Under the pieces are notes generated by a model. The model saw only the letters and a program-made list of their open reading frames with translations. It was not told the DNA's origin and searched no databases. DNA of 52,526 nucleotides, taken from a virus (Duplodnaviria; Caudoviricetes). Of the stretch, positions 19,678 to 50,145 are shown in pieces. Position 1 is the stretch's first letter. Every line of letters starts with the position of its first letter. The stretch covers positions 1 through 52,526 of IMG/VR virus record IMGVR_UViG_3300048995_000012; one strand, given 5' to 3'. Position numbers and translations under genes: made by a program.

Positions 19678-20067
19678 ATGGGTTCAGATTTCCCGCCTGG
19701 TCTCGGTTCCCGCGGCTCTCGCCTCTGGCGGGACGTGACGGCTTCGTGGTCTCTGACTCCAGCGCACTCGGTGCTATTGGAGGAGGCTTGCCGTATCACT
19801 GACCGGCTCGATGTGCTCAACTCCATACTCCTGCGGGCTTCTTCGCAGGTCAAGGGGGATGACGAAGAGTCTTCGGGTGAATCCGCCGATTTCTCGGGGG
19901 TATTGGCGGAGTCGCGGCAGCAGGCGACTGCTCTTCGCGGCCTTATCGCCGAAATTCGGCAGGGTCAGAGGAATGCGGCGCCGGCCGTGGTGCCGAAGGT
20001 GGGGGGTAAGGGTGTCTCGGACCTCTCGGCGCGTATCGCTGAAAGGCGCAAGCAGGCCGAGGGTTGA
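19678..20067 (+). CDS. terS: Terminase small subunit
   Basis: PPGLG.RG.RLWR...LLEEACRITDRLD.L...E.RQQ..ALR.L. Confidence 0.88.
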   Translation: MGSDFPPGLGSRGSRLWRDVTASWSLTPAHSVLLEEACRITDRLDVLNSILLRASSQVKGDDEESSGESADFSGVLAESRQQATALRGLIAEIRQGQRNAAPAVVPKVGGKGVSDLSARIAERRKQAEG

Positions 20068-21544
20068 GCTGGCGCCGCCCTACGAGTACACGCTTGGCCC
20101 TGAGGCGTGCGAGCTGGCGAAGCGGGCGGGCCTGGTGGCGGATCCGTGGCAGGCGGATGCGGTCAATCTGATGCTGGCGTGCCGTGATGACGGCAAGTGG
20201 GCGTGCTACGAGTACGGCGAGATCGTGGCCCGGCAGAACGGCAAGGGTTCGATCCTGGAGATCCGAGCGCTGGCTGGGTTTCTGCTGCTGGGCGAGCAGC
20301 TGATCATGTGGTCGGCGCACGAGTACAAGACCAGCATGGAGGCGTATCGGCGGTGCCGGACGCTTCTGCGGCGGCTCGGCAAGCAGGTCAATCCGAACAA
20401 TGAGAACTTGTGGGACGTTGACGGCGTTCTCGTCAAGTTCGTCAATACGAACGGTGAAGAGGGCTTCGAGCGGCTCGACACTGAGGCCCGCATCAAGTTC
20501 GTGGCCCGGTCGAAGGGTTCGGGCCGTGGCTTCTCTGGCGACCTCGTCATCATCGACGAGTCGTTCGCGTTCACGGCGGAGCAGCAGGACGCTTTGATGC
20601 CTGCGATGGCGGCCCGCCCGAATGCGCAGATCATCTATACGTCGTCGCCGCCGTTGAATGGCGAGTCCGGCGAGGTCATGTTCAATCTGAAGCGCCGGGC
20701 GGATGCTGGCGGCGACGACAGTCTGGGCTGGCGGGACTGGGGTATCGCAGGCGACCTGGACCATCTCGACGACGTCGACTTGGATGACCGCCGTTTGTGG
20801 GCGGCGTCGAATCCGGCGCTGGGGATGCGGCTGACGGAGGAGACGATCCTGCGGGAGCGCCGTTCCATGGGGAATGCGGGCTTTGCGCGTGAGCGGCTGT
20901 GTATCTGGCCGAAGATCTCGCAGGGCAACACGGTTGTGGACCCGGCGGTGTGGGCGCGGCTGATGGATGGCGGGTCGCAGCGTGACCGCGATGGCGGTGT
21001 GGCGCTCGGCATCGACATTGCGCCGCTGCGGGACTACGCGGCGGTGTGCGTGTACGGGCTGCGCGAGGACGGGCTCGGCCATGTGCAGTTGGCGGACTAC
21101 CGGCCGGGCACGAAGTGGCTGATCCCCAGGCTGGTGGAGTTGCGGGACGCGCTCGATCCGGTGTCCGTGGCGATGGGCCGCGGCACGTTCGCGTTCCTGG
21201 AGACCGCCCTGGACAAGGCCGGGTTCCAGCGGCCGGAGGATCTGGAAGCCCCGGCGTCGGGTGATCTGGCGGTGACGAACGCGGTCGATATGGCTGCGGC
21301 GGCGGGCCAGTTGCTGGAGGCGGTGCGCGAGGAGTCGTTCCGAGTCGTCCCGAACCGGCACCTCGATGTGTCGGTCGCCTCGGCGAAGACGCGGCAGACG
21401 GGCGAGACGATCGCGTGGACGACGAAGGGCGTGGAGGGCGACATCAGCCCCCTGGTGGCGATGACGCTGGCCCGCTGGAGCTTCGTGACCCGCTCGCATC
21501 TGCTGGCGGGGTCCGAGTACGACGTTCTGCAATCGATCTTCTAG
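20012..21544 (+). CDS. terL: Terminase large subunit
   Basis: VARQNGKG Walker A, RGFSGDLVIIDE Walker B, SNPALG, LGIDI, DISPLVA. Confidence 0.95.
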   Translation: MSRTSRRVSLKGASRPRVELAPPYEYTLGPEACELAKRAGLVADPWQADAVNLMLACRDDGKWACYEYGEIVARQNGKGSILEIRALAGFLLLGEQLIMWSAHEYKTSMEAYRRCRTLLRRLGKQVNPNNENLWDVDGVLVKFVNTNGEEGFERLDTEARIKFVARSKGSGRGFSGDLVIIDESFAFTAEQQDALMPAMAARPNAQIIYTSSPPLNGESGEVMFNLKRRADAGGDDSLGWRDWGIAGDLDHLDDVDLDDRRLWAASNPALGMRLTEETILRERRSMGNAGFARERLCIWPKISQGNTVVDPAVWARLMDGGSQRDRDGGVALGIDIAPLRDYAAVCVYGLREDGLGHVQLADYRPGTKWLIPRLVELRDALDPVSVAMGRGTFAFLETALDKAGFQRPEDLEAPASGDLAVTNAVDMAAAAGQLLEAVREESFRVVPNRHLDVSVASAKTRQTGETIAWTTKGVEGDISPLVAMTLARWSFVTRSHLLAGSEYDVLQSIF

Positions 21545-21552
21545 GGAGCGGC

Positions 21553-22977
21553 ATGGCATTCAGGCGGTGGTTCCGCCGCGCTCCTGCGCGGACGGTGGAG
21601 GGCGAGGCCGGCCCGGTCCTGGTGGGCGATACATGGATGGATGCGCGTGGTCGGTCGAGTGTGGGCTGGCTGTCGGTGGCTGGTGCGACGTGGCGTCGGC
21701 GGCTGGGCGGGTTCGCGGGCGGTGTGCGGCGCGCGGGCGGCTGGCTGGTCGGCGTGGAGGTGCGGTCGACTGAGCAGCGTTCGATCACGTCGGTGCCTTG
21801 GGGGCAGGGCGGGGCGTCTGGCACGTCATCGCTGAGTGTCGACCGGGCGCTGCGTCTGGCTCCCGTGTACGCGGCGGGCCGGCTGCTCGCCTCGAACCTG
21901 GCGGCTGCTCCACTACGGCAGTACCGGGAGGTCGGCGACGCGAAGCAGAAGCTTCCGCTGGCTTCACTGTTCGTGAATCCGTCGACGCAGGGCACGCTCA
22001 ACGACTGGGTGTGGCGGGCCGTTTCGTCGATGGTGTACCGCGGCAATGCGGTCGGCTACATCACCGCGCGGGACTACTACGAGTTCCCGACGCAGATCGA
22101 GTGGATCAACCCCGACTGGGTGTCGGTTCAGGACCGGCTGCCGTCGGGCCCGGGTTCGTTCACGAATCCGATCTGGCGGGTGCTCGGCAATCCGGTGCCC
22201 GCTCAAGACCTGGTGCACATTCCGTGGTTCACGCTCCCTGGGCGGGTGTGGGGCTTGTCGCCGCTGGGCGCGTTCGCCTCAACGGTGCGCACAGGGCTGG
22301 CCGCGCAGGAGTACACGCAGGCCTGGTTCGAGAACGGCGGAGTGCCGCCGGGCACCTTCAAGAACACGGCGATGACCGTGGACCAGGGCGACGCCGCGGT
22401 TATCAAGCAGCGCCTGGTGGAGGCCATCCGGACGCGGCAGCCGATCGTGTACGGCAAGGACTGGGACTTCAACGCGATCACGGTCCCCGCGCACGAGGCG
22501 AAGTTCGTTGAGACGATGCGGCTTACGGCCAGCCAGATCGCCGCGATCTACGGCGTTCCGGCGGAGATGATCGGCGGCGAGACCGGCGGCAGCATGTCGT
22601 ACAGCTCCCCGGAGCAGCGCGAGATCGAGCTGGTGCAGTTCTCGCTGCTGCCGTGGATGAGCAAGCTCGAATCGCATCTGTCGGCGCTGCTGCCGCGCGG
22701 CCAGTGCGTCAAGTTCGATGCTGACAGCCTGATTCGGGTGGATGCCCTGACCAGGTGGGGAATGTGGGAGCGAGCCCGCCTGATCGGCGCGATGAACGTC
22801 GACGAGATCCGCAGCCGCGAAGACATGCCGCCGCTGTCGGACGGACTTGGGCAGGACTACACACCGCTTCCGATCCTGGCTGGCACGTCGATCACCCCGC
22901 CTGCGATCCGCGGCCACCACGATCAGGACCAGGACCGGCTGAGGCTGGTCCGCAGGGAAGGCAGCGGAAATGGCTGA
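21553..22977 (+). CDS. HK97-type portal protein
   Basis: YRGNAVG, WFENGGVPPG, IAAIYGVP, MNVDEIRSREDMPP. Confidence 0.95.
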   Translation: MAFRRWFRRAPARTVEGEAGPVLVGDTWMDARGRSSVGWLSVAGATWRRRLGGFAGGVRRAGGWLVGVEVRSTEQRSITSVPWGQGGASGTSSLSVDRALRLAPVYAAGRLLASNLAAAPLRQYREVGDAKQKLPLASLFVNPSTQGTLNDWVWRAVSSMVYRGNAVGYITARDYYEFPTQIEWINPDWVSVQDRLPSGPGSFTNPIWRVLGNPVPAQDLVHIPWFTLPGRVWGLSPLGAFASTVRTGLAAQEYTQAWFENGGVPPGTFKNTAMTVDQGDAAVIKQRLVEAIRTRQPIVYGKDWDFNAITVPAHEAKFVETMRLTASQIAAIYGVPAEMIGGETGGSMSYSSPEQREIELVQFSLLPWMSKLESHLSALLPRGQCVKFDADSLIRVDALTRWGMWERARLIGAMNVDEIRSREDMPPLSDGLGQDYTPLPILAGTSITPPAIRGHHDQDQDRLRLVRREGSGNG

Positions 22978-23692
22978 CCAGCGCACCATCACCTCACCGA
23001 GCGCCGTTGGAGGCACCGTGGAGATCGAACGCCGGTACACCTCCGGCGACACAGGCAAGGCCGAATTGCGCGCCGACGGCGAGAAGCGCCGCATCGGCGG
23101 GTACGCGGCGGTGTTCAACCGGCAGTCCCGCAACCTGGGCGGCTTCGTCGAGGTCGTCGACACGGTGGCCTTCAACCAGGCCCGCGGTGACGGCTGGCCG
23201 GACGTGCTCGCCCGCTACAACCACGACGACAACCAGCTCCTCGGCACGACAGCCGCCGGGACGCTCAGGATGGGCCTGGACAGCTACGGGCTGTCCTACG
23301 AGGTTGATCCGCCGTCGTCGATGGCCCATGTGACGGAGCTGGTGCAGCGCGGCGACGTCCGTAAGAGCTCGTTCGCGTTCCGCACGGTGAGCGACGACTG
23401 GGCGACGACGGAGCAGGGCTATCCGTTGCGCCGCCTGACGGGCGTACAGCTCGTCGACGTCGCCCCGGTGAACGTGCCCGCTTACCCGGACAGCACGGCG
23501 GGCCTTCGTTCGCTGGCGAGCAAGTTCGAGGCGGACTTCGAGGAGGTCCGGTCGATGGCGCGGGAGGACGAGCTGCGGAAGTTCTTCGTCCGTACCGATG
23601 GGCCGCAGCCCAAGAAGCCTGCCCGTAAGGGCATGTTCGGACCGGCCGCCGCCGCGGCGCTGCTGGCCCGCAGGGAAGACCCCTACATCTGA
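22970..23692 (+). CDS. HK97-type prohead protease
   Basis: GYAAVFN..S..LGGFVE, YNHD, SSFAF, LVDVAPV..PAYPD. Confidence 0.95.
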   Translation: MADQRTITSPSAVGGTVEIERRYTSGDTGKAELRADGEKRRIGGYAAVFNRQSRNLGGFVEVVDTVAFNQARGDGWPDVLARYNHDDNQLLGTTAAGTLRMGLDSYGLSYEVDPPSSMAHVTELVQRGDVRKSSFAFRTVSDDWATTEQGYPLRRLTGVQLVDVAPVNVPAYPDSTAGLRSLASKFEADFEEVRSMAREDELRKFFVRTDGPQPKKPARKGMFGPAAAAALLARREDPYI

Positions 23693-23967
23693 GGCCTCGG
23701 CCTCCAGCAATGCAAGACCCCCGCCATGCGGGGGCGGTACGCCGTCCTTGGACCGCGTAGCCGTACTGCCACGGCGTCGACTTGGGCTCTCCCGGTCGGT
23801 GTCCGCTCTGGGTGCGGTGAAGCACACAACGGGCCAGCGTGCGACACGAGGAAGTGATCAGCGGACCGCCGGTTGCGCAAAGGCGCCGGCCACCGGCACC
23901 CCTTGGGGTGTGGGACCGCGAGGGCTCCGCGTTCGAGATCGATTTCGAGCGGACGAGGAGTCCATCC

Positions 23968-25233
23968 ATGTCGGACATGGTTCAGAGGCTGCGCGAGCGG
24001 CGCGCCAACGTGTGGGAGCAGATGAAGGGGCTCGCCGACAAGGCGGCCGATGAGAACAGGGCTTTCGAGCCCAGCGAGCAGGGCTCGTGGGATGCGATGA
24101 ACGACGAGCTGGACAAGCTCGACGAGCGCATCAAGTCGGCTCTGGACACCGAGCAGCGGGCGAAGGAGGCCGACGACGCTTTCGACCGTCTGCACGGTCA
24201 GGGCGGCGGCCAGCGTGGCGGCGCGGCTGGTGGCGGCCAGCTGGAGCGTCGGGGCGAGCAGGCGGGCGGGGAGGACCGTGGCGACGAGCTGCGTTCGTTC
24301 CTCCGCGGTGAGCGCGGCCGGTTCTACGACGTGCAGCCCGAGGGACGGACCGACTACCGGTCTCTCGTCAAGGGCACGGCGACGGCGGGCGGCAACACGG
24401 TCCCGACGTCGTTCTACGACCGGCTGATCGCGCACCTCATCGAGGTGTCCGCGATCATGCAGGCCGGGGCGACCGTCCTGAACACCAACTCGGGTGAGGT
24501 CATCCAGGTCCCGAAGACGACCGCGCACTCCAGCGCGTCCATCGTCACCGAGGGCAACGCGATCGGCGCGTCGGATCCGGCGTTCGGTCAGGTTCCGCTC
24601 GGTGCCTACAAGTACGGCACGATGATTCAGGTCTCGCGCGAGCTCCTGGATGACACGGGCGTCGACCTGGAGGGCTACCTCGCCATGCAGGCGGGGCGGG
24701 CGCTGGGCAACGCGTTCGGCGCGCATGCCATGACCGGCTCGGGTACCTCGCAGCCGCGCGGTGTCATCACCGACGCCACGCTCGGCGTGACGGGCGGCAC
24801 CGGCGTGACGGGCGCGTTCTCCGGCGACAACCTGATCGACCTGTTCTTCTCTGTGATCGCCCCGTACCGGGCGTCGGCCTCCTGTCGCTGGATCATGAAG
24901 GACTCGACGGTCGCGAACGCCCGCAAGCTGAAGGACACGACTGGCCAGTACATCTGGCAGCCGGGTCTGCAGGCGGGTTCGCCGGACATGATCCTCGGCA
25001 AGCCGGTTCTGACCGACCCGAACGTGCCCGCGACTGCCCTGTCGGCGAAGTCGCTGGTGTTCGGTGACTTCAGTCAGTTCTTCGTTCGCTTCGCGGGCGG
25101 CGTGCGCTTCGAGCGGTCTGACGACTACGCGTTCAACACGGACCTGGTCACCTTCCGGGCCCTGCTGCGCGCCGACTGCTCCCTCGTGGATTTGACCGGC
25201 GCGATCAAATATTTCGCTGGGAATGCGGCCTAG
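23968..25233 (+). CDS. HK97-fold major capsid protein with delta domain
   Basis: Coiled-coil N-terminus; GGNTVPT, VSRELLDD, YIWQP, VFGDFSQF. Confidence 0.95.
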   Translation: MSDMVQRLRERRANVWEQMKGLADKAADENRAFEPSEQGSWDAMNDELDKLDERIKSALDTEQRAKEADDAFDRLHGQGGGQRGGAAGGGQLERRGEQAGGEDRGDELRSFLRGERGRFYDVQPEGRTDYRSLVKGTATAGGNTVPTSFYDRLIAHLIEVSAIMQAGATVLNTNSGEVIQVPKTTAHSSASIVTEGNAIGASDPAFGQVPLGAYKYGTMIQVSRELLDDTGVDLEGYLAMQAGRALGNAFGAHAMTGSGTSQPRGVITDATLGVTGGTGVTGAFSGDNLIDLFFSVIAPYRASASCRWIMKDSTVANARKLKDTTGQYIWQPGLQAGSPDMILGKPVLTDPNVPATALSAKSLVFGDFSQFFVRFAGGVRFERSDDYAFNTDLVTFRALLRADCSLVDLTGAIKYFAGNAA

Positions 25234-31501: not shown

Positions 31502-31531
31502 CCTGACCACCCGTGAGTGAGGGGAGGCGTC

Positions 31532-34500
31532 ATGGCCAGCTCCAGCATCGTCTACCGGCTCATCGCCCACGACTCGGCGTCGAAGACCTTCCACAATGTG
31601 GGTCGTTCGGCGAGCAAGACGGACTCGACGCTGGCGAAGCTGGGCCAGACCGCCACCAAGGCGGGGGCGGCCCTGGCGGCGGGTCTCGCCGTAGGCCTGG
31701 CCAAGGGCGCCAAGGATGCGAGCAGGTTCCAGGCGGAGATGACCCGCATCTCGACCCAGGCCGGCGGCACGGCGAAGGATGTCAAAGTCCTGAGCGACCA
31801 GGTTCTGAAGCTCGGCACGTCCACCCAGCAGGGTCCCCAGCACCTCGCCGAGTCGCTGTACCACCTCAAGAGCGTCGGCATGGACAACGTCCAGGCGATG
31901 AAGGCGCTCAAGGAGAGCTCCGACCTGGCGGCCGTCGGTCACGCCAACCTCGAAGAGACCACCAACGCGCTGGCGGGCGCCTGGCGGACCGGCATCAAGG
32001 GCGCCACCAGCTTCCATGAGGCCGTCTCGACGGTGAACGCGATCATCGGCGCGGGCAACATGTCGATGGATCAGTTCAACGCCGCCATCGGTACCGGCAT
32101 CCTGCCCAGCGCGAAGACCTTCGGTCTGAGCATGAAGCAGGTCGGCGCCGCCCTCGCCCTGATGACAGACGAGGGCATCGACAGTGCGTCCGCGGCCACC
32201 CGGCTGCGGATGTCCTTCAGCCTGCTCGGCGCACCGTCGAAGGCTGCCGAGAAGCAGCTGGGCAAGATCGGGCTGACAGGCCTCAACCTCGCCGATGCGA
32301 TGCGAGGCCCGAAGGGTCTGATCGGCGCGATCGGTCTCCTGAAGGAGCACCTCGACAAGAGCGGCCTGTCCGCGTCGAGGCAGTCGCAGCTGCTCTCCCG
32401 GGCGTTCGGTGGCGGCCGGTCCTCGAGCGGCATCTTGCTCATGCTCAACAACCTCGACGTGCTCGAGAAAAAGCAGGAGCAGATCAACCGCAGCACCGGC
32501 AAGTTCGATGACGCCGTCAAGATGCAGCGCAAGACGGCCGAAGCCCAATGGCACCTGCTCACCTCGAACTTGGAGGTGATGGGCATCCGGGTCGGCACGA
32601 AGGTGCTGCCGCCGGTTACCAGCTTCATCCACTTCCTGGCCACCGATGCGATGCCCGCAGCGGCACGGTTCGGGAAGGCCATGGGCAACCTGATACCGGT
32701 GGGCCCGATCAAGCAGGGCATCTCCACGGCCAAGGGGCTGGTGTCCGACTTCCTCAAGGGCTTCTCCGGAACGAAGAAGGCCGCATCGGATCTGCTGGGC
32801 GGCCTGTTCGACACGTCACCGCACCTGGGCAGCAGCAAGGCGTCCGCGGCCTCCAAGGGGCCCGCGCTGCCGCCTATGCCGCACTTCGGCGTGGGTCAGG
32901 TCGCGCCGACCACTGGTGTGCAGGGGCCTGCGCTGCCGCCTATGCCGCACGGCGGGTCGGGCCTGGTGGCCTCGCTCGTCTCGCCGAAGGCGAAGCCGCC
33001 CAAGAGCGCCGCCGAGAAGATCGGCGCAACGATCCGTAAGGCGATCAGCGGCAGCTTCAAAGACATCGACTGGGGCAAGCTCGGATCGATCCTCGGCAAG
33101 GGCCTCGGGGATGCGATCGGCTGGGTAGGCAAGCACACCGCCGACTTCACGAAGAAGATCGCGAAGATCTTCGCCGGCCTGGACTTCGTCGAGATCGGCA
33201 AGGGCTTCGGTGGCGCCGCGCTGCCCCTGGCGATCGGCTTCATCACCAACCTGTTCGCCCCGCTGTTCAGCCTGGACTTCTGGAAGAAGCACTGGCTCGA
33301 CACGATCATCGCGGTGCTGTCGGTCATTCCGATCGGCCGCATCGCCGGCGTGCTCGGCAAGGTGTTCGAGCACATCCCGTTCCTGAAGGTCTTCGAGCCG
33401 CTCCTGAAGGGCGTCGGCAAGCTCGGCGGCTGGATCGAGAAGGGGCTCGGGAAGGTGTTCGGGCCGCTCGGCCGCGGAATCGCTTCGGGATTCAAGAAGG
33501 TCTTCCCCGCCGCCGGAAGCATCGCCAAGGACCTTCTGGAGCGGCTCATCCTCGGCCCGGCGCGACGCCTCAAGACAGCTGCTGGGCTGATCCCGAAGGC
33601 TGTCGGTTCCGGCATCGAGAAGGGCGCAAGCTTCGTCACGGAGAAGGTCCTCGGCCTCGCCAAGACGATCCTGCGGCCCTTCGCGCGTGCGGGCGGCTTC
33701 CTGCTCCGCAAGGGCGCCGACATCGTCAAGGGCCTCGGCCGCGGCATAAGCAGTGCGGCGAAGGGCATCGGCAGCTTCGCCTGGCGGTGGGTCGGAAAGC
33801 CAGTCGTCGACGCATTCAAGGGCGCCGGGTCCTGGCTCATCCGTGGGGGCAAGAGCCTGGTCTCGGGCTTCAAGCGGGGAAGCATCTCTGCCGCCAAATC
33901 GATCGGCGGCTGGGCGAAGAAGAACGTCATCGACCCCGTCACAGGTGTGTTCAAGTCGTCCGGGTCATGGCTGTACAGCAGAGGCAAATCGATAGTGGGC
34001 GGCCTGAAGAGCGGCACGGCGGCAGGCGCGAAGGGCATCGTCAGTTTTACGAGCCGCACGGTCATCAGCCCGGTCATCGGCGCCTTCAAGGGCGCCGGCA
34101 TGTGGCTGTGGAGGGGGGGAAGGAGCCTGGTCTCGGGCTTCAAGAGCGGCTCCATCTCCGCTGCGAGGGGCATCGGCGGCTGGATCAACAAGAATGCGAT
34201 CAAGCCCGTTACGGGAGCCTTCAAGGGTGCTGGATCCTGGCTGAAGTCGGCGGGCGGCCACCTCCTGTCCGGCTTGAAGGACGGCATCTGGGGCGCCATC
34301 AAGGGCATCGGTCACTGGATCAAGAAGAATGTCGTCGATCCGGTCGTCAACTCGGTGAAGAAGTTCTTCGGCATCAAGTCGCCGTCCAAGGTCTTCATGG
34401 GCATCGGCGGCCACCTCGTGTCCGGCCTCATCAAGGGCATGGCGACGACCAGCGGCTCGGCGATCGCGAAGAAGGTGTTCGGTGACATGCCGTCCGCCCT

Positions 34501-36331
34501 CGGCCACCTGGTCAAGAAGGGCCTGGTCAGCATCAGCAAACTGCCGGGCAAGGCGATGAAGGCCCTGAGCGGGCTGGGCAGCTGGTTCGGCGACCTGTTC
34601 AGCGGCGGGGGAGGCGGTAGCGGGAAGGGCGTGGACCGCTGGACCAGCACCGTCAACACGGTGCTGGGCATGCTTGGCGCGCCCGGGTCCGCCCTGGGCG
34701 CCGTCCTGACCCGCATCAACATGGAGTCCGGCGGCAACCCGAAGGCCATCAACCTGTGGGACTCCAACGCGAAGGCGGGCCACCCGTCGCAGGGACTCAT
34801 GCAGACGATCCCGTCGACGTTCAGCGCCTACGCGGGCCCGTTCCGGGCGCGGGGCATCACCGACCCGCTCGCCAACGTGTACGCGGGCGTCAACTACGCG
34901 ATGCACGCGTATGGCAAGAACTGGATCAACGTGATGACCCGGCCTGGCGGGTACGCCAAGGGCACCGGTGGCGCCGCCAAGGGCCTCGCGTGGGTGGGCG
35001 AGAAGGGCGCCGAGCTGGTCAACTTCAAGGGCGGCGAGGACGTCCTCAGCCACCCAGACAGCATGGCGTTCGCCAAGACGCACGGCATCAAACTGCCCGG
35101 CTACGCCTCCGGCACCATCACCAACGCAGCCGACCGGGTCCACCGCGACAAGCAGAAGGTCGAGGACGCCAAGGACGCTCTCGCGGCGGCCAAACGCCGC
35201 CACAAGGGAGTCGCCGCCGCCGAGAAGCGGCTGAAGGCTGCGGAGAAGGAACTCCAGGCCGCGAACATTGCGCTCCGCAACGCAAAGCGCTCCGCGAAGA
35301 CGTCGATCGCCAACACCATCGCCACCGGTCTCGTGAAGACGCTGAGCACAGGCACGTCGTCAGCAATCGCCTCGGCGATCAAGAGCCTGGCGACGAAGCT
35401 GCTCAACGCGGGCTACAACAAAACCGCCAAGTCCGTGCAGAAAAAGGGCAGCCAGCTGGAGAAGCTCGCCGACAAGCGGGCCAGCGTCCAGAAGACGATT
35501 GCCGCGGCGAACCAGTACGCCAGCGACCAGGCCTCCAACATCAAGGACTTCCTCAGCATCAGCGGGACGTCGGCCACCGACATCGGCGGCCTCCTCTCGC
35601 AGATGGGCGGCCAGCAGAAAACCGCGAGCAACTTCGTGGCCCTGTCAAAGTCCCTGAAGGCGCGCGGCGCGTCGAAGGAACTGCTGCAGCAGCTCTCCGA
35701 TGCAGGGCCGGGCAGCCAGCTCGCGTCCATCCTCGGACAGAAGAACGTCACCACCGGGGACATCGGCAAGCTGAACAGCCTGGTCGCCTCTGGCGGCAAG
35801 CTGGCGACGTCGTTCGGCAAGGACATGGCCGACATGATGTACGACTCCGGCAAGAACGCCGGGAAGGGTTTCCTCGCGGGGTTGAAAGCCCAGGAGAAGG
35901 ACCTCGCGAAGCAGATGGACAAGCTGGCCAAGGACTTGGTCAAGGCCATCAAGAAGGCGTTGAAGATCAAGAGCCCGTCCCGGGTGTTCCGCGACGAGAT
36001 CGGCAAGAACGTCGTCCTCGGCATGGCCCACGGCATCGACATGCACGGCCACCTCGTCGGCAGCGCAGCCCAGCGCCTCGCCGACACCGCCACCGGCGTG
36101 TCCATGCGCCGCCGCTACGTGCCCGTCATCCACGGGGCCCGGCCCTCGACGGGGCAGGAGCAGGCATGGGAGCGGCTCGCCGCAGCCATCGAGGCCTCAG
36201 GCAATGAGGTGCACGTGCACTTCAACGACGACCGGCTGCGGGACCTCATCGACGTCCAGGTCAAACCGAAGATCAAGGCGTCGGCGACCCAGCAGGCCTA
36301 CCGGGCCAACGTGGGGAGGCGAACCGGGTGA
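31532..36331 (+). CDS. Tape measure protein with lytic transglycosylase domain
   Basis: ~1600 aa; TP901-type core, Trp-periodic repeats, MESGGNP.AINLWDSNA.AG.PS.GLMQ. Confidence 0.95.
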   Translation: MASSSIVYRLIAHDSASKTFHNVGRSASKTDSTLAKLGQTATKAGAALAAGLAVGLAKGAKDASRFQAEMTRISTQAGGTAKDVKVLSDQVLKLGTSTQQGPQHLAESLYHLKSVGMDNVQAMKALKESSDLAAVGHANLEETTNALAGAWRTGIKGATSFHEAVSTVNAIIGAGNMSMDQFNAAIGTGILPSAKTFGLSMKQVGAALALMTDEGIDSASAATRLRMSFSLLGAPSKAAEKQLGKIGLTGLNLADAMRGPKGLIGAIGLLKEHLDKSGLSASRQSQLLSRAFGGGRSSSGILLMLNNLDVLEKKQEQINRSTGKFDDAVKMQRKTAEAQWHLLTSNLEVMGIRVGTKVLPPVTSFIHFLATDAMPAAARFGKAMGNLIPVGPIKQGISTAKGLVSDFLKGFSGTKKAASDLLGGLFDTSPHLGSSKASAASKGPALPPMPHFGVGQVAPTTGVQGPALPPMPHGGSGLVASLVSPKAKPPKSAAEKIGATIRKAISGSFKDIDWGKLGSILGKGLGDAIGWVGKHTADFTKKIAKIFAGLDFVEIGKGFGGAALPLAIGFITNLFAPLFSLDFWKKHWLDTIIAVLSVIPIGRIAGVLGKVFEHIPFLKVFEPLLKGVGKLGGWIEKGLGKVFGPLGRGIASGFKKVFPAAGSIAKDLLERLILGPARRLKTAAGLIPKAVGSGIEKGASFVTEKVLGLAKTILRPFARAGGFLLRKGADIVKGLGRGISSAAKGIGSFAWRWVGKPVVDAFKGAGSWLIRGGKSLVSGFKRGSISAAKSIGGWAKKNVIDPVTGVFKSSGSWLYSRGKSIVGGLKSGTAAGAKGIVSFTSRTVISPVIGAFKGAGMWLWRGGRSLVSGFKSGSISAARGIGGWINKNAIKPVTGAFKGAGSWLKSAGGHLLSGLKDGIWGAIKGIGHWIKKNVVDPVVNSVKKFFGIKSPSKVFMGIGGHLVSGLIKGMATTSGSAIAKKVFGDMPSALGHLVKKGLVSISKLPGKAMKALSGLGSWFGDLFSGGGGGSGKGVDRWTSTVNTVLGMLGAPGSALGAVLTRINMESGGNPKAINLWDSNAKAGHPSQGLMQTIPSTFSAYAGPFRARGITDPLANVYAGVNYAMHAYGKNWINVMTRPGGYAKGTGGAAKGLAWVGEKGAELVNFKGGEDVLSHPDSMAFAKTHGIKLPGYASGTITNAADRVHRDKQKVEDAKDALAAAKRRHKGVAAAEKRLKAAEKELQAANIALRNAKRSAKTSIANTIATGLVKTLSTGTSSAIASAIKSLATKLLNAGYNKTAKSVQKKGSQLEKLADKRASVQKTIAAANQYASDQASNIKDFLSISGTSATDIGGLLSQMGGQQKTASNFVALSKSLKARGASKELLQQLSDAGPGSQLASILGQKNVTTGDIGKLNSLVASGGKLATSFGKDMADMMYDSGKNAGKGFLAGLKAQEKDLAKQMDKLAKDLVKAIKKALKIKSPSRVFRDEIGKNVVLGMAHGIDMHGHLVGSAAQRLADTATGVSMRRRYVPVIHGARPSTGQEQAWERLAAAIEASGNEVHVHFNDDRLRDLIDVQVKPKIKASATQQAYRANVGRRTG

Positions 36332-40462: not shown

Positions 40463-40702
40463 ATGCCCCTCGACCCGCCCGAGACGTCGACGAGTGACAC
40501 CACGTGGTTCGTCAACGGCCGCTACAGCGCCAACTCGGTCACGAGCTTCCAGGTGAAGGTCACCGTCGAAGGTCCGTCCCAGGAAGCCGAGGGCGACGCC
40601 TGCCTTCAGGCCCTCGTCGACCTGCTCGGCACCCGGTTCGCCGGAGTCACCGGCACCAAGGGCTTCACGGCGTACACCACCCGGAACATGACCACATCCT
40701 GA
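40463..40702 (+). CDS. Small hypothetical protein
   Basis: AGGAG RBS. Confidence 0.65.
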   Translation: MPLDPPETSTSDTTWFVNGRYSANSVTSFQVKVTVEGPSQEAEGDACLQALVDLLGTRFAGVTGTKGFTAYTTRNMTTS

Positions 40703-40721
40703 CGTCCCACGCATCCCCAAC

Positions 40722-40745
40722 GCCTCGCCCGCCGGGGCCTTTTTT
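40722..40745 (+). terminator. Terminator-like hairpin before lysis genes
   Basis: GCCTCG/CGGGGC stem plus T6. Confidence 0.6.
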
Positions 40746-40764
40746 ATGCCCGAGGAGCCCGACG

Positions 40765-41673
40765 ATGATCCACGGAATCGATGTTTCGGCCTACCAGCCG
40801 GAGACGTACAGCACGGCGGGCCTGGACTTCGTGATCGTGAAGGCCACCGAGGGCCTCTCGTACACCAACCCGCGGATGGCCGCGCAGGCCAAACGGGCAC
40901 GTGACGCCGGGCTCGTCATCGGCTACTACCACTACCCCCACATGGCCAACGACCCCGTCGCCGAGGCGAACTACTTCCTGTCCAAGGTTGCCTGGCGGCC
41001 GGGGGACATCATCGTCTTCGACTGGGAGGGCTACGACGCCGCCAACAAAGGCGTCAGCAAGTCCAGGCAGCTCACCTACCGCGACGCCTGGCTGAAGTAC
41101 GTCAAAGGCAAGATGGCCGGCCACCGGGTCGGCATGTACTCCAACACCGACTACTGGCTGAACGTCGACAAGACGTCCAACTGCGGCGACTTCCTCTGGA
41201 TCGCCACCGGCGGCAAGCCGGCCGGGCAGCCCGGCATCAACTACGCCTGGAGGTTCCACCAGTACTCCACTGCTGGCGGCATCGACCACGACGTCGCCGC
41301 ATTCGATTCCCGCGCCGCACTGGCCGCGTGGGCAGGCAGCATCCAGGAGACAGACGTGGCCCTGACCACCGCAGAAATCGGCAAGATCGCCGACGCCGTG
41401 TACGCGAAGCTCCTCAAGACCGACGACGTGCTGACCGCACCTGCGGACGCAGCCGACTACGCGACGAACAAGTTCTGGACGTGGCAGACCCACATCCAGG
41501 ACGTCACCACCCGCGTGCGTGCCCTCGGCAAGAAGGTCGACGCACTGCCCGCCGTCGAGCTGACCGACCAGCAGATCGCCACGCTCGCCTCCACCGTCGC
41601 CGCCAACCCGGCGCTCGCCGAGCAGATCGCAGAGAAGGTCGCCGTCAAGCTCGCCGCGAGGCTCGCTCAGTGA
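40765..41673 (+). CDS. Endolysin, GH25 muramidase
   Basis: GIDVSAYQ, VKATEG, G.YHY, FDWE, LWIA, FHQY, IDHD. Confidence 0.93.
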   Translation: MIHGIDVSAYQPETYSTAGLDFVIVKATEGLSYTNPRMAAQAKRARDAGLVIGYYHYPHMANDPVAEANYFLSKVAWRPGDIIVFDWEGYDAANKGVSKSRQLTYRDAWLKYVKGKMAGHRVGMYSNTDYWLNVDKTSNCGDFLWIATGGKPAGQPGINYAWRFHQYSTAGGIDHDVAAFDSRAALAAWAGSIQETDVALTTAEIGKIADAVYAKLLKTDDVLTAPADAADYATNKFWTWQTHIQDVTTRVRALGKKVDALPAVELTDQQIATLASTVAANPALAEQIAEKVAVKLAARLAQ

Positions 41674-41743
41674 CCGCGATCGCCCACGCCCGCCACAACC
41701 AGACCGTCCGGCGCTGGCTCGCCGAACAGGAAGCGAGAACCTC

Positions 41744-42127
41744 ATGAAGTACTTCGGACGCGAGCCCGTCTACATCCTCGGCTTCATCGCCGCCCTCCTG
41801 CAGGCTCTGTCTGCGTTCGGCGTCGACCTGTCCGCCGACACGCAAACCCTCATCAACGCCGTGTCGGCCGCCGCAGTCGGGCTCATCACGGCGATCGTTC
41901 TGAAGAACGGCGCGCTCGCCGCCGCCATCGTCCAGTTCGCGCAGGCTGTCATGGCGCTCTGCGTCGGCTTCGGGCTCGACTGGTCCGCCGACGACCAGTC
42001 CAAGGTCATGGCCGCCATCGGCGCGCTCGTCACCCTGTGGCTGCGGGAGAAGGTCACCGCGCCCGTGCCTTCCGTGCCGCTGGAGCAGTCGAGCCCGGTT
42101 AAGCCGTCCGCGCCGCGGAGCGTGTAG
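41744..42127 (+). CDS. Holin
   Basis: FGREPV start, four hydrophobic segments, follows endolysin. Confidence 0.8.
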   Translation: MKYFGREPVYILGFIAALLQALSAFGVDLSADTQTLINAVSAAAVGLITAIVLKNGALAAAIVQFAQAVMALCVGFGLDWSADDQSKVMAAIGALVTLWLREKVTAPVPSVPLEQSSPVKPSAPRSV

Positions 42128-43281: not shown

Positions 43282-43415
43282 TGTTCATCAATCGGTCGGA
43301 ACGTGAACCTGAACATCGATCATGGTCAACTCGCTGTTCAGCAAGTCCAGTTGTTCAGAAACTCGTTCATCAACCTGGTAGTGTTCAGAATGCCAACCGA
43401 TACGTTTGATGAACG
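43282..43415. other. res-like site upstream of resolvase
   Basis: YGTTCA half-sites at 43282, 43335, 43352, 43364, 43382 and inverted TGAACR at 43310, 43410. Confidence 0.7.
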
Positions 43416-43429
43416 AAAGGGGGATGTGG

Positions 43430-44047
43430 ATGGCCCTAGTTGGCCTCGTCCGCGTCAGCACCGACAAGCAGAACGTCCAGCGACAACACGACGCACTCGA
43501 CCCGATCTGCCTGAAGGTCTTCGAGGAGAAGATCAGCGGCAAGCTCGCCACCGAAGAACGCCCCGCCCTCACCGCCGCCATCGAGTACCTCCGCGAAGGC
43601 GACATGCTCTGCGTTCAGGAAGTCGACCGCCTCGGTCGCAACCTCCTCGAAGGCCTGATCGTCCTCAACGACCTCTTCGAGCGCGGCATCTCCGTCAAGG
43701 TGCTGGAAGGCATCGCAGCCGGCGAGCACAAGGAGCGCTCCCTGATCCTCGACCTCGCCCTGGCCCTCGCCGAAGACCGGCGCCGGGACATCGTCAAGAA
43801 GACGAAGGACGGGCTCGAAGCCGCCCGCAAGCGGGGACGCGTCGGCGGACGCAAGCCCGTGATGACGGAGGCCCTCACCATTCAGGCCGCTGCCCTGCGG
43901 GAGCGAGGCTTCACCATCCGGCAGATCCAGCCGCACCTCCGGATCGCCGAAGGTGCGAACAAGGGGAAGAACCCCAGCGTTGGCGCCATCTCCCAAGCGC
44001 TCCAGCTCCACGATGCAAGCCTCGCGACCGCGGGGGAGGCCTCGTGA
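43430..44047 (+). CDS. Serine resolvase/invertase
   Basis: RVSTDKQ, F.EKISG, RPAL, DRLGRN, GLEAAR.RGR.GGRKP, C-terminal HTH. Confidence 0.93.
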   Translation: MALVGLVRVSTDKQNVQRQHDALDPICLKVFEEKISGKLATEERPALTAAIEYLREGDMLCVQEVDRLGRNLLEGLIVLNDLFERGISVKVLEGIAAGEHKERSLILDLALALAEDRRRDIVKKTKDGLEAARKRGRVGGRKPVMTEALTIQAAALRERGFTIRQIQPHLRIAEGANKGKNPSVGAISQALQLHDASLATAGEAS

Positions 44048-47711: not shown

Positions 47712-47954
47712 CTAGCCATGCAGGAGGTCAGTGACGTGCACCCGCAAGGCGTGAGCGATCAGCAGCAGGTCCGAGAACTGCGGATCGCGAACCGCGTTCT
47801 CGTAGCGCTGGATGCTGCGCCGCTCCATGCCGGCGAGGTGCGCCAGCTCCTCCTGTGATAGCTCAGCCTGTCGCCGTAAGTCGGCGATGCGGTGGCCGAG
47901 GGCGATACGGCGTTGCATGACCCAATCGGGTCGAGGATTGCGGCGGGCTGGCAC
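47712..47954 (-). CDS. XRE-family HTH regulator
   Basis: LGHRIADLRRQAELSQEELA..AGM.R.SIQRYE...RDP...LLLIA.AL. Confidence 0.9.
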   Translation of the reverse strand: MPARRNPRPDWVMQRRIALGHRIADLRRQAELSQEELAHLAGMERRSIQRYENAVRDPQFSDLLLIAHALRVHVTDLLHG

Positions 47955-48127
47955 CCGGGACACGCTTCGGCGTCAGTGATCTTGAGTCAGTACCCAAGTG
48001 GTCGCCACTTGAGAAAGTTTGGATGCTGTGCGACGGACGGCCCGCCCCTCCCCGTAGAGCAGATGGAAGACCCTCAGCCTTGCGGTGCGCTGGCATATGC
48101 CGCAGGGCTTCCGGTAGTTTCAAGTAA

Positions 48128-48250: not shown

Positions 48251-48490
48251 ATGGACCGCCCGGACATCCTCGACCTCTACAACTGGCAGCCCGGAGTGTG
48301 CTTCCGACACCCCGACAAAGGCACCGTCGACACCACCGTCGTCAAGACCCTCCACCCCCGCCACGACGGCGACCACGACGTCCGCGCCTGCCGCGAGTGC
48401 ATCCTCGCCATGGAAGCCATAAGGCGCGAGGCAGCCGAACGCTCGGGGAGCGAGTATGTACCGGGACACGCGGGCGAAGCGCAGAGCTAG
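48251..48490 (+). CDS. Small Cys/His hypothetical protein
   Basis: AGGAG RBS; LY.W.PG.CFRHP.KG...RAC.EC. Confidence 0.7.
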   Translation: MDRPDILDLYNWQPGVCFRHPDKGTVDTTVVKTLHPRHDGDHDVRACRECILAMEAIRREAAERSGSEYVPGHAGEAQS

Positions 48491-48517
48491 GGCATTCCTG
48501 CAGCTCGCATCCGCTCC

Positions 48518-48820
48518 TGGGGCCGGAATCGTGGGGAGAATCTGGGGAGCGGATGCCGCCGGGGAGGCGCTGGGGGGACTCGCTCGTCAGTAATGCATCT
48601 CAATGAAGCTCAAAGCATCTTCAAGTATCGCAGCAGTTCATTGGGTCACCGGCGGGACGAGCCGCAACCCGCCGCAGGTCACGGAACACCGGGCGACAGA
48701 ACCCGGCGTACAGCCCGACTCGTCTGCCCTGTAGGTCATTGACCTGCAGGAACGCCCCGGCTTCCTTGATCCATACCGGCGCTGGGGAGAATCTGGGGAG
48801 AATCAGAACCGGGGGAGATC
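48518..48820. other. attP: integrase arm-type repeats TGGGGAGAATC flanking the core, plus Xis-site-like 10-bp repeats
   Basis: Perfect arm units at 48532, 48783, 48794 with degenerate copies; taatgcatct/caatgaagct/caaagcatct/tcaagtatcg at 48591-48630. Confidence 0.82.
48683..48727 (+). other. attP core matching the 3' end of RNase P RNA (rnpB fragment, not a full gene)
   Basis: GACAGAACCCGGCGTACAGCCCGACTCGTCTG matches, from recall, conserved region V/P4 and the P1 3' strand of Streptomyces RNase P RNA. Confidence 0.8.
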
Positions 48821-50145
48821 TCGGGAGCCTCATCCGCCTCACCGGCGGGGGCATCACCAGCGCCGGGGGACAGGAACCGCCCGAGCGCCACAATCCCCAT
48901 GCTGCCAGACTTCGGCATGAAATGCGTGTACGTCCGCAGCGTGAAAGCCGGATCTGAATGCCCCAGCCACGCAGCCAGCCTTGTGATGGTCTCACCGGCC
49001 TGCAGCACGACCGACGCGAACGTGTGCCGGGTGACGTGGAAGCCGTCCTCGCGTGGCATGTTCCACGCGATCCGCGCCCACGGCTTCTTCCCCTCGCCCT
49101 GCACCCACTCGGTCTCCGGCTTCGGAATCACTCCGGCCCGAACCAGCGACGGCTTCCACGTCTTGTCATCGAACGTGACCCGGTTAACCGCCCCGCCGGC
49201 GACGCCCCCCGTGCGCGGAGTCGTCACAAGCAGCCGCACCGTCCGCTTCGGCCGGTCCTCCCACGCCAGGTTCGGCCGGTCCGGATCCACCCACGGCAGC
49301 GTCACCTCCACCGTCGGAAAAGAGTTGGCGTACTCCTTGACCGCGGCAGCCAGCTCGGGCGGGCACGGCGCTGTGCGCTCCTTGTTGCCCTTCGGCGGCG
49401 CGAAGCCGAGACGGGAGTTGACCCGGACGATCTGACGCACCACCCCGATCTCCTCGCCGTCAATGTCGTCCGGAGAGAAGGCGAGCGCCTCACCCTGACG
49501 CAGCCCCGCCCCGACTCCTAGAGCCAGCAGGATCCGGTACCGGGGAGGAAGCGCCTCCCGCATCGCGGCCACGGTCTCCTCCGGCCACGCCTTCGCCTTC
49601 GACGGCGGCACGGCCGGCGCCTTCAAGTCCTCGTCGCGGAACGGGTTCGCCGGAATCCGCTTCGCCTTGTACGCGGCCTGCATGATGGACGAGAAGTGCC
49701 GCCAGGTCACGGAGAGGGTGCTGACGTCGATGTTCTGCTCGGCGCGCGTCACCCAGGCTTTGATCTCGTCATGGCCGATGCGGTTCAGCGGCAGGTGCCC
49801 GATGTGCGGCAGGATGTGGTTGAACACGCGGGGCTTCATGGACTGCTTCGTCGTCGGCGACTGACGGAGCGTCGGCCACCACTTCTCCTCGACGTACCAC
49901 TGCAAGGTGACGTTGCCGTCCCGCGGATCGTAGAACTCCCCGCGGACCGTGTCCGTCTGCGCCTTGGCCATCCACTCCTCGGCGCCGCCTGGGCCCTTGA
50001 GGTTGGTGAAACTGCGATCCCGGACGCCCGGGATGCCGGCCACGCGCCAGCGCTTGCCCTGCTTGTAACGATCCGTCTTGCGCTTCTTGCCCGTTTCCGG
50101 GTCGGGTCGCTTGGTCCACCACCGATCCTCGATGTAGCCCGGCAT
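48736..50145 (-). CDS. int: Tyrosine integrase
   Basis: GLRQGE (R), PPKG (K), FHVTRH (HxxR), LGH, TYTH (Y); C-terminus runs into attP arm. Confidence 0.95.
   Translation of the reverse strand: MPGYIEDRWWTKRPDPETGKKRKTDRYKQGKRWRVAGIPGVRDRSFTNLKGPGGAEEWMAKAQTDTVRGEFYDPRDGNVTLQWYVEEKWWPTLRQSPTTKQSMKPRVFNHILPHIGHLPLNRIGHDEIKAWVTRAEQNIDVSTLSVTWRHFSSIMQAAYKAKRIPANPFRDEDLKAPAVPPSKAKAWPEETVAAMREALPPRYRILLALGVGAGLRQGEALAFSPDDIDGEEIGVVRQIVRVNSRLGFAPPKGNKERTAPCPPELAAAVKEYANSFPTVEVTLPWVDPDRPNLAWEDRPKRTVRLLVTTPRTGGVAGGAVNRVTFDDKTWKPSLVRAGVIPKPETEWVQGEGKKPWARIAWNMPREDGFHVTRHTFASVVLQAGETITRLAAWLGHSDPAFTLRTYTHFMPKSGSMGIVALGRFLSPGAGDAPAGEADEAPEISPGSDSPQILPSAGMDQGSRGVPAGQ

Follow-up and report, generated by a model that had tools for sequence, protein, structure and literature searches.

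Tyrosine integrases usually target tRNA or tmRNA genes, and P4, L5, pSAM2 and SLP1 are all integrators that use the 3' part of such a gene. Integration into tRNA and tmRNA genes is said to have been surveyed by Williams (NAR, 2002). In attP sites of the lambda/L5 type, the core is flanked on both sides by arm-type repeats. In 2025, the Enterococcus phage phiEf11 was reported to integrate into ffs, encoding the 4.5S/SRP RNA, which was presented as a novel kind of site (PMC12540744). In the part of that article available to us, the known ncRNA targets are given as tRNA/tmRNA and csRNA, and rnpB is not among them (PMC12540744). As judged from the same part, the locus analyzed here is like that of phiEf11 in that a temperate phage carries, near its integrase gene, a segment of identity with a non-tRNA housekeeping RNA gene, and differs from it in the RNA gene, the host phylum and the integrase (PMC12540744).

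The DNA analyzed, which we refer to as the window, is the whole of the IMG/VR virus contig IMGVR_UViG_3300048995_000012 (52,526 bp, linear, completeness rating 75%). Based on PHROG matches, it is a siphovirus-type temperate phage, and its predicted host is Streptomyces (soil). Structural, lysis and repressor genes were identified in the window with PHROG; besides the following genes, a head-tail adaptor, a major tail protein and a tail chaperone were found in this way.

298-1632: DnaB-like helicase (PHROG)
19811-21544: large terminase (PHROG)
22970-25233: head protease and major head protein (PHROG)
31517-36331: tape measure protein (PHROG)
40504-42127: endolysin and holin (PHROG)
43406-44047, plus strand: serine recombinase of the resolvase/invertase type, 213 aa (PF00239, 98.8 bits), located behind the lysis genes in the late region
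47712..47963, minus strand: Xre/Cro-type HTH regulator, likely the repressor (PHROG/Pfam)

The position of the Xre/Cro-type regulator indicates that the attP-int module, whose features are given below, lies within an immunity region. Because the attP is internal to the contig and has phage DNA on either side, the record represents the unintegrated form.

48532..48577, plus strand: P arm, intergenic, with four direct GGGGAG-type half-sites at 48533, 48544, 48561 and 48572 (spacing 11, 17 and 11)
48583..48645, plus strand: A+T-rich spacer, 63 nt, 44% GC versus 68% for the genome
48688..48728, plus strand: attP common core, 41 bp, corresponding to the last 39 nt of the host rnpB (from the P4 3' strand to the P1 3' strand) and 2 nt downstream
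48696..48717, plus strand: inferred crossover region ACAGAACCCGGCGTACAGCCCG, transferred to the window by homology with the lysogen G278 (see below)
48728..48750, plus strand: 10-bp hairpin predicted by folding, directly after the rnpB end and overlapping the integrase stop codon
48736..50145, minus strand: tyrosine integrase of 469 aa, with its stop codon at 48736-48738
48783..48828, plus strand: P' arm, with four direct GGGGAG-type half-sites at 48784, 48795, 48812 and 48822, laid out as in the P arm

The best explanation for this arrangement, to which we assign a probability of roughly 90%, is that the phage would integrate into rnpB, which encodes the RNA of RNase P, through this attP and the adjacent tyrosine integrase.

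The initial annotation had recognized the 3' terminus of Streptomyces RNase P RNA in a segment of about 45 bp (48683-48727). The segment is present, but its limits had to be revised: the stretch identical to the host is the 41-bp core at 48688-48728, separated from the integrase stop codon by 7 nt. Exact identity between window and host extends over 48688-48728 in comparison with locus L037, and over 48689-48728 with locus L017. The proposed screening with the Rfam model RNaseP_bact_a (RF00010) resulted in a match at 48653-48726 on the plus strand when 501 nt (48400-48900) were scanned (E=5.5e-4), and a search of the phage's own genome placed an RF00010 match at the same position (E=1.4e-5). 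The 3' 33 nt of the match align, with high posterior, to the model-terminal ACAGAACCCGGCUUAcaggccggCucgucuu. Exact copies of the 32-mer at 48695-48726 were found in genomes of Streptomyces and Actinacidiphila and in MAGs, at least 121 stretches in all. In each of the five loci tested, a full RF00010 match of 280-299 bits terminates on the last base of this 32-mer, which demonstrates that the identity proposed in the annotation was correct. Among the matches listed, 123 occurrences of the 32-mer were scored, two of them counted double (L027 and L028 overlap). A full rnpB ends with the 32-mer in 114 of these, 6 are isolated 3'-only fragments and 3 are cut by contig ends; exactly the 41 bp are common to window and host in 47 of the 123, the maximum being 45 bp. 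The RF00010 E-values, together with the full host matches that end on the 32-mer, show that the similarity between core and rnpB is not due to chance. As had been stated before, the remainder of the gene is absent from the phage DNA: no full rnpB was found in the 52,526-bp window. In the Rfam alignment, CGGGACGAGCC (48653-48663), located upstream of the core, is paired with the P1 3' strand (48718-48726); this mock P1 helix contains three non-standard pairs and may be a matter of chance.

The translated integrase gene shows the catalytic domain PF00589 (41.1 bits versus a curated cut-off of 27.1), the central domain Phage_int_M (27.4 bits, cut-off 27) and a match to the integrase family phrog_1 (1.1e-38). 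Reading the translation by eye, we found HVTRHTF (H-x-x-R) and LGHSDPAFTLRTYTH (the C-terminal H/W...Y nucleophile motif); HVTRH and LGHSDPAFTLRTYTH are what we take to be the catalytic motifs of a tyrosine recombinase. A protein search of 50,697 deposited phage records revealed no similar integrase at E<=1e-20, and comparison of the int-attP region with the deposited-phage collection, in near and distant modes, did not give a match. A search with the integrase of one genome-contig collection was likewise negative, whereas the search of 401 Streptomyces genomes did give relatives. Only distant integrases were found in the plasmid collection, with at most 34% identity over 83-88% of the query, or at most 43% over shorter stretches.

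The region around the core resembles attP sites of the lambda/L5 type in having arms on both sides of the core over about 300 bp, the P arm being the longer one, and in the A+T-rich sequence that separates arm from core. It differs from them in that the putative GGGGAG half-sites, all in direct orientation, are organized as two 11-bp-phased pairs per arm, and in that the P' arm overlaps the coding end of the integrase gene. It had been proposed that the core lies between arm repeats beyond the integrase stop codon. For the core this is right, but the right-hand repeat is part of the integrase ORF and falls within the last ~30 codons at its 3' end. A 17-mer of the arms, GGGGAGAATCTGGGGAG, is present twice in the window (48533 and 48784) and nowhere else in it; 0.01 occurrences are expected, and none of 100 shuffled sequences contained two matches. 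The GGGGAG arm motif is kept on both sides of the core in the aligned attP regions of related phages, and is also retained beside int in lysogens and in relatives having other cores. These repeats are presumably the arm-type binding sites of the integrase. The A+T-rich spacer contains three 10-bp-phased repeats, CTCAA(T/A)G / CTTCAAG, at 48599, 48609 and 48619, and repeats of the ACTCAAAGG type are found at the spacer position in the alignment of related phages; they are candidates for a putative bending, host-factor or excision-factor site.

The hairpin that follows the rnpB end has a predicted dG of -21.1 kcal/mol and a z-score of -3.4 (54 nt) or -2.5 (56 nt). A hairpin with the conserved CUGACCUG at its centre, but with differing stem sequences, was found in 8 of the 13 family members (z <= -2 in 4 of them) and is absent in the other 5, which makes it a common but not universal element. 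Presumably it is a terminator or 3'-end structure that the phage would give to the rebuilt rnpB, and it possibly serves int as well.

Integrase and core searches of IMG/VR yielded 11 loci on 10 contigs (L123-L133), two of the loci being cut by contig ends. The integrases of all ten contigs are 64-79% identical to that of the window (tblastn), and in all ten an rnpB 3' fragment is located just beyond the integrase stop codon, in the same convergent layout. The fragment of L123 has a length of 32 nt and contains one mismatch; it measures 44 nt in L127-L129 and 50 nt in L124-L126 and L130-L132. In locus L133, rnpB extends for 88 nt until the contig ends, so this locus is an attL junction. Alignment of these attP regions revealed conservation of the core, of the arm motifs on both sides, of TTGATCCA and of a CTGACC(T/A)G element, but divergent spacers. 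Among the 50,697 deposited phage records, a core adjoining an integrase was not found. The only match of a 66-nt core query there, MT836823.1 (L172), an unverified record labelled 'Bacteriophage sp.' from a human faecal sample, was discarded as another attP. It contains a complete rnpB (294 bits) followed by a gene for an Ig-like/PD40-repeat protein; because this full rnpB has no integrase beside it, the record is probably a fragment of a bacterial chromosome.

The search of the 401 Streptomyces species genomes gave an integrase match at E<=1e-40 in 224, and the 30 best loci, at which the identity to the window's integrase decreases from 74% to about 43%, were examined. At 11 of these 30, all among the top 15, rnpB sequence is present within 1.5 kb of the integrase gene (2 full, 9 partial); it is absent at 15 more distant homologue loci (42-46% identity). 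An Rfam scan of nine homologue loci gave no match at E<=0.01, even at loci with known short rnpB fragments, and is therefore uninformative about short cores. Two genomes, G127 and G278, each contain a complete prophage for which both attL and attR could be located; the integrases of these lysogens show 67-69% identity to that of the window.

G127, L135 1080-1482: full rnpB, 295.3 bits; integrase gene convergent, 13 nt downstream of it; second, 3'-only rnpB copy 57,296 bp downstream; attL/attR identity a 59-bp direct repeat
G278, L139 1093-1491: full rnpB, 296.8 bits; integrase gene convergent, directly downstream of it; second, 3'-only rnpB copy 61,673 bp downstream; attL/attR identity 22 nt only, with mismatches on both sides

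It had been suggested to look for close integrase homologues beside rnpB with a duplicated core, and both lysogens have this arrangement, the duplicated part being the 3' core. Loci L133 and L142 (G365), where rnpB runs into the contig end beside the integrase gene, display part of it. A full rnpB is absent from attR in G127 as well as in G278, and in both the full gene at the other junction scores like uninterrupted genes, in agreement with the earlier proposal that the 3' end of rnpB is rebuilt upon integration. For these relatives of the phage, it is thus documented that one junction has the intact gene and the opposite junction a duplicate of its 3' end only.

The differences between attL and attR of G278 allowed the position of strand exchange to be narrowed down. 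The sole stretch in which the two are identical is ACAGAACCCGGCGTACAGCCCG. To the left of it, the base of the host is found in attL and that of the phage in attR; to the right, attL has GCCCGGCUCG and attR GCCCGACUCG. The mismatches flanking ACAGAACCCGGCGTACAGCCCG imply that crossover occurred within these 22 nt, which include the P4 3' strand. Lysogeny has changed one base of P1 in G278. According to the Rfam alignment the position forms a standard pair in attL, and both alleles are also seen in single-copy genomes. Outside the integrase module, the prophages of G127 and G278 share few tblastx matches above 120 bits with the window, indicating that the int-attP module is mosaic.

We infer from these observations that the window contains a lambda-style attP at approximately 48532-48828, in which the 41-bp core lies between two arms of four phased GGGGAG half-sites. 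The integrase would recombine this core with the identical sequence that ends the chromosomal RNase P RNA gene, most likely by strand exchange within ACAGAACCCGGCGTACAGCCCG, that is, the P4 3' strand and the bases following it. At attL, the host would keep the 5' ~360 nt of rnpB, and the phage would supply the identical 3' end, its own hairpin and the convergent integrase gene; the hairpin would then end the transcript of the rebuilt gene. At attR, on the other side of the prophage, the displaced host 3' end with the native terminator would remain as an orphan. For the phage of the window itself, integration, the exact cut sites, recognition of the arms by protein and the role of the hairpin are predictions. 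Counting against this reading are that the phage itself was not seen integrated, that the integrases of the lysogens are only 67-69% identical to its own and that tblastx matches outside the integrase module are few. The non-rnpB neighbours of three related integrases (L136-L138, see below), the lack of a recognized excisionase near int, the completeness rating of 75%, the missing hairpin in 5 of 13 relatives and a tRNA call by ARAGORN on the opposite strand weigh in the same direction.

An alternative is that the rnpB fragment was once used as attP and is now inactive, being a relic of imprecise excision or part of a decayed module, in which case the phage would not integrate or would use another site. 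The phage of the window was not seen integrated, the record is 75% complete, and no Pfam or PHROG family indicating an excisionase was recognized in the ORFs around int, all of which would fit such a decay. However, the core matches current host genes perfectly over 41 bp, the integrase ORF is intact and supported by Pfam, arms and core are conserved in all ten related viral contigs though the spacers diverge, and relatives are found integrated. We consider an inactive attP unlikely.

The relationship between integrases and their targets was analyzed with a quick maximum-likelihood tree of 43 rows, with SH-aLRT values as support and a midpoint root used for drawing only. The window is placed in a subclade of 13 rows (SH-aLRT 91), including G127 and G278, in all of which the integrase gene is beside rnpB in convergent orientation. 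In the next larger clade (26 rows, support 90), 22 rows adjoin rnpB, and 8 of these 22 have the opposite geometry, in which int is followed by a co-directional 3' fragment. An example of the latter is the MAG element L017/L081, with the full rnpB and the fragment about 55.4 kb apart. The exceptions in the 26-row clade are L136-L138 (G316, G115 and G389) and L143. The integrases of L136-L138 are 67-70% identical to that of the window and have the CTGGGGAGAATCTGGGGAGA arm motif beside int, but abut protein-coding or other host sequence in place of rnpB. The arm sites are thus retained whereas the core has been exchanged, and the choice of target can change within the clade; the pattern resembles a recent change of attachment site among integrases of a single clade. 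Tyrosine integrases of a second lineage, only 27-28% identical, were found 0.7-2.4 kb from orphan rnpB 3' fragments at G003:C8:2367844 (L053), G004:C3:102571 (L078) and G005:C80:21591 (L077).

Loci L136-L138 raise the question of whether the integrase of the window also uses another chromosomal site, the rnpB-like stretch being incidental. Besides the arm motif that they keep next to non-rnpB sequence, the small serine recombinase encoded at 43406-44047 could be taken to favour this. However, L136-L138 have no rnpB core, whereas the window has one in the canonical place between the arms, its subclade is associated with rnpB in 13 of 13 rows, and the serine enzyme, with its 213 aa, is of the resolvase/invertase type and not a large serine integrase. 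Use of another site is very improbable.

On the minus strand, ARAGORN called a tRNA-Ile(aat) covering 48680-48774, which would make a tRNA gene the attP element. This call was rejected because Rfam did not detect a tRNA in 48400-48900 at E<=10, because the 95-nt candidate overlaps the stop codon and coding end of the integrase gene, and because the same bases form the exact rnpB match on the other strand. ARAGORN also detected no tRNA in any of the 30 best homologue loci, and we regard a tRNA target as almost certainly wrong. That the fragment is expressed as an RNA, acting as decoy or antisense regulator of RNase P instead of as a recombination site, has next to no probability, since its one point in favour, a conserved piece of ribozyme followed by a hairpin, is outweighed by the fragment comprising only the last 39 nt of rnpB and by its position between arms next to int, together with the attL/attR duplications of the lysogens, both of which are as recombination predicts.

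Integration into rnpB, the reading that we prefer, shares several properties with integration into tRNA and tmRNA genes: int is located beside attP, a stable-RNA gene has its 3' part duplicated in the core, and that gene is rebuilt at one junction with an orphan 3' fragment at the other. In the window, the core adjacent to int is identical to the 3' part of a host RNA gene, and this gene is rnpB (RF00010) rather than a tRNA or tmRNA gene. For both kinds of integrators, the high conservation of the target implies a broad potential host range. Unlike in the tRNA/tmRNA integrators, the P1 3' strand and, from the ribozyme core, the P4 3' strand are part of what is exchanged. With it, rnpB would join the short list of stable-RNA docking genes (tRNA, tmRNA and, recently, ffs), as a case in which a phage swaps a strand of the catalytic core of an essential ribozyme without visible damage. 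A full-text literature search with limited coverage of subscription journals, and not extending to island databases, retrieved no publication in which rnpB is named as an attachment site; the novelty of this site is provisional. We are evenly divided on whether rnpB represents a general and so far undescribed class of target. According to this idea, the class would comprise the 26-row clade (22 rows adjoining rnpB) with its two opposite attP-int geometries as well as the lineage of 27-28% identity; exchange would take place in the universally conserved P4 3' strand, so that DNA of the phage contributes to the catalytic RNA, and prophages, as with the one P1 base in G278, could rewrite an essential ribozyme.

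Of the 401 sampled Streptomyces species genomes, 309 contain the 29-nt core pattern, and the exact 32-mer occurs in at least 121 genome stretches, so that an int-attP cassette of this family could give an integrative vector with a broad host range. Integrative vectors for Streptomyces exist that are based on phiC31, phiBT1 and VWB; the rnpB site would be a new, single-copy one usable beside these. The site is occupied in nature, as two or three core copies are present in 13 of the 401 genomes, including the centre genome (G001), which was chosen for its second copy, and a mirror-image duplication (G314).

For five of the six orphan 3' fragments among the 123 listed occurrences, the distance to the full gene is 5.9 kb, 75.6 kb or, in G003, 4.3 Mb on the opposite strand, and in two genomes the gene and the fragment are on different contigs; the sixth fragment is that of the MAG element L017/L081. 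The opposite-strand placement in G003 suggests a later chromosomal rearrangement. In G001:C2:177780-184108 (5.9 kb) and G002:C11:109194-185281 (75.6 kb), a full rnpB lies at one end of a segment and an orphan 3' fragment at the other. A PF00589 integrase was not detected at E<=1e-5 in or beside either segment; these may be decayed elements or users of another recombinase.

Region 9623-13746 of L027 (Streptomyces sp. ERV7; G314:C29:642655-646020) contains two facing full rnpB copies, 290.4 bits each and 3.3 kb apart, and the ORFs between them are mirror images (pairs of 504, 331, 294 and 129 aa), so that either the rnpB locus has undergone an inverted duplication or the contig is a palindromic misassembly. 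Genome G064 contains three core copies, two about 56 kb apart on C19 (L134) and the third on C30. On C19, an integrase of 71-74% identity is encoded beside one of the copies, and the DNA upstream of one copy is masked.
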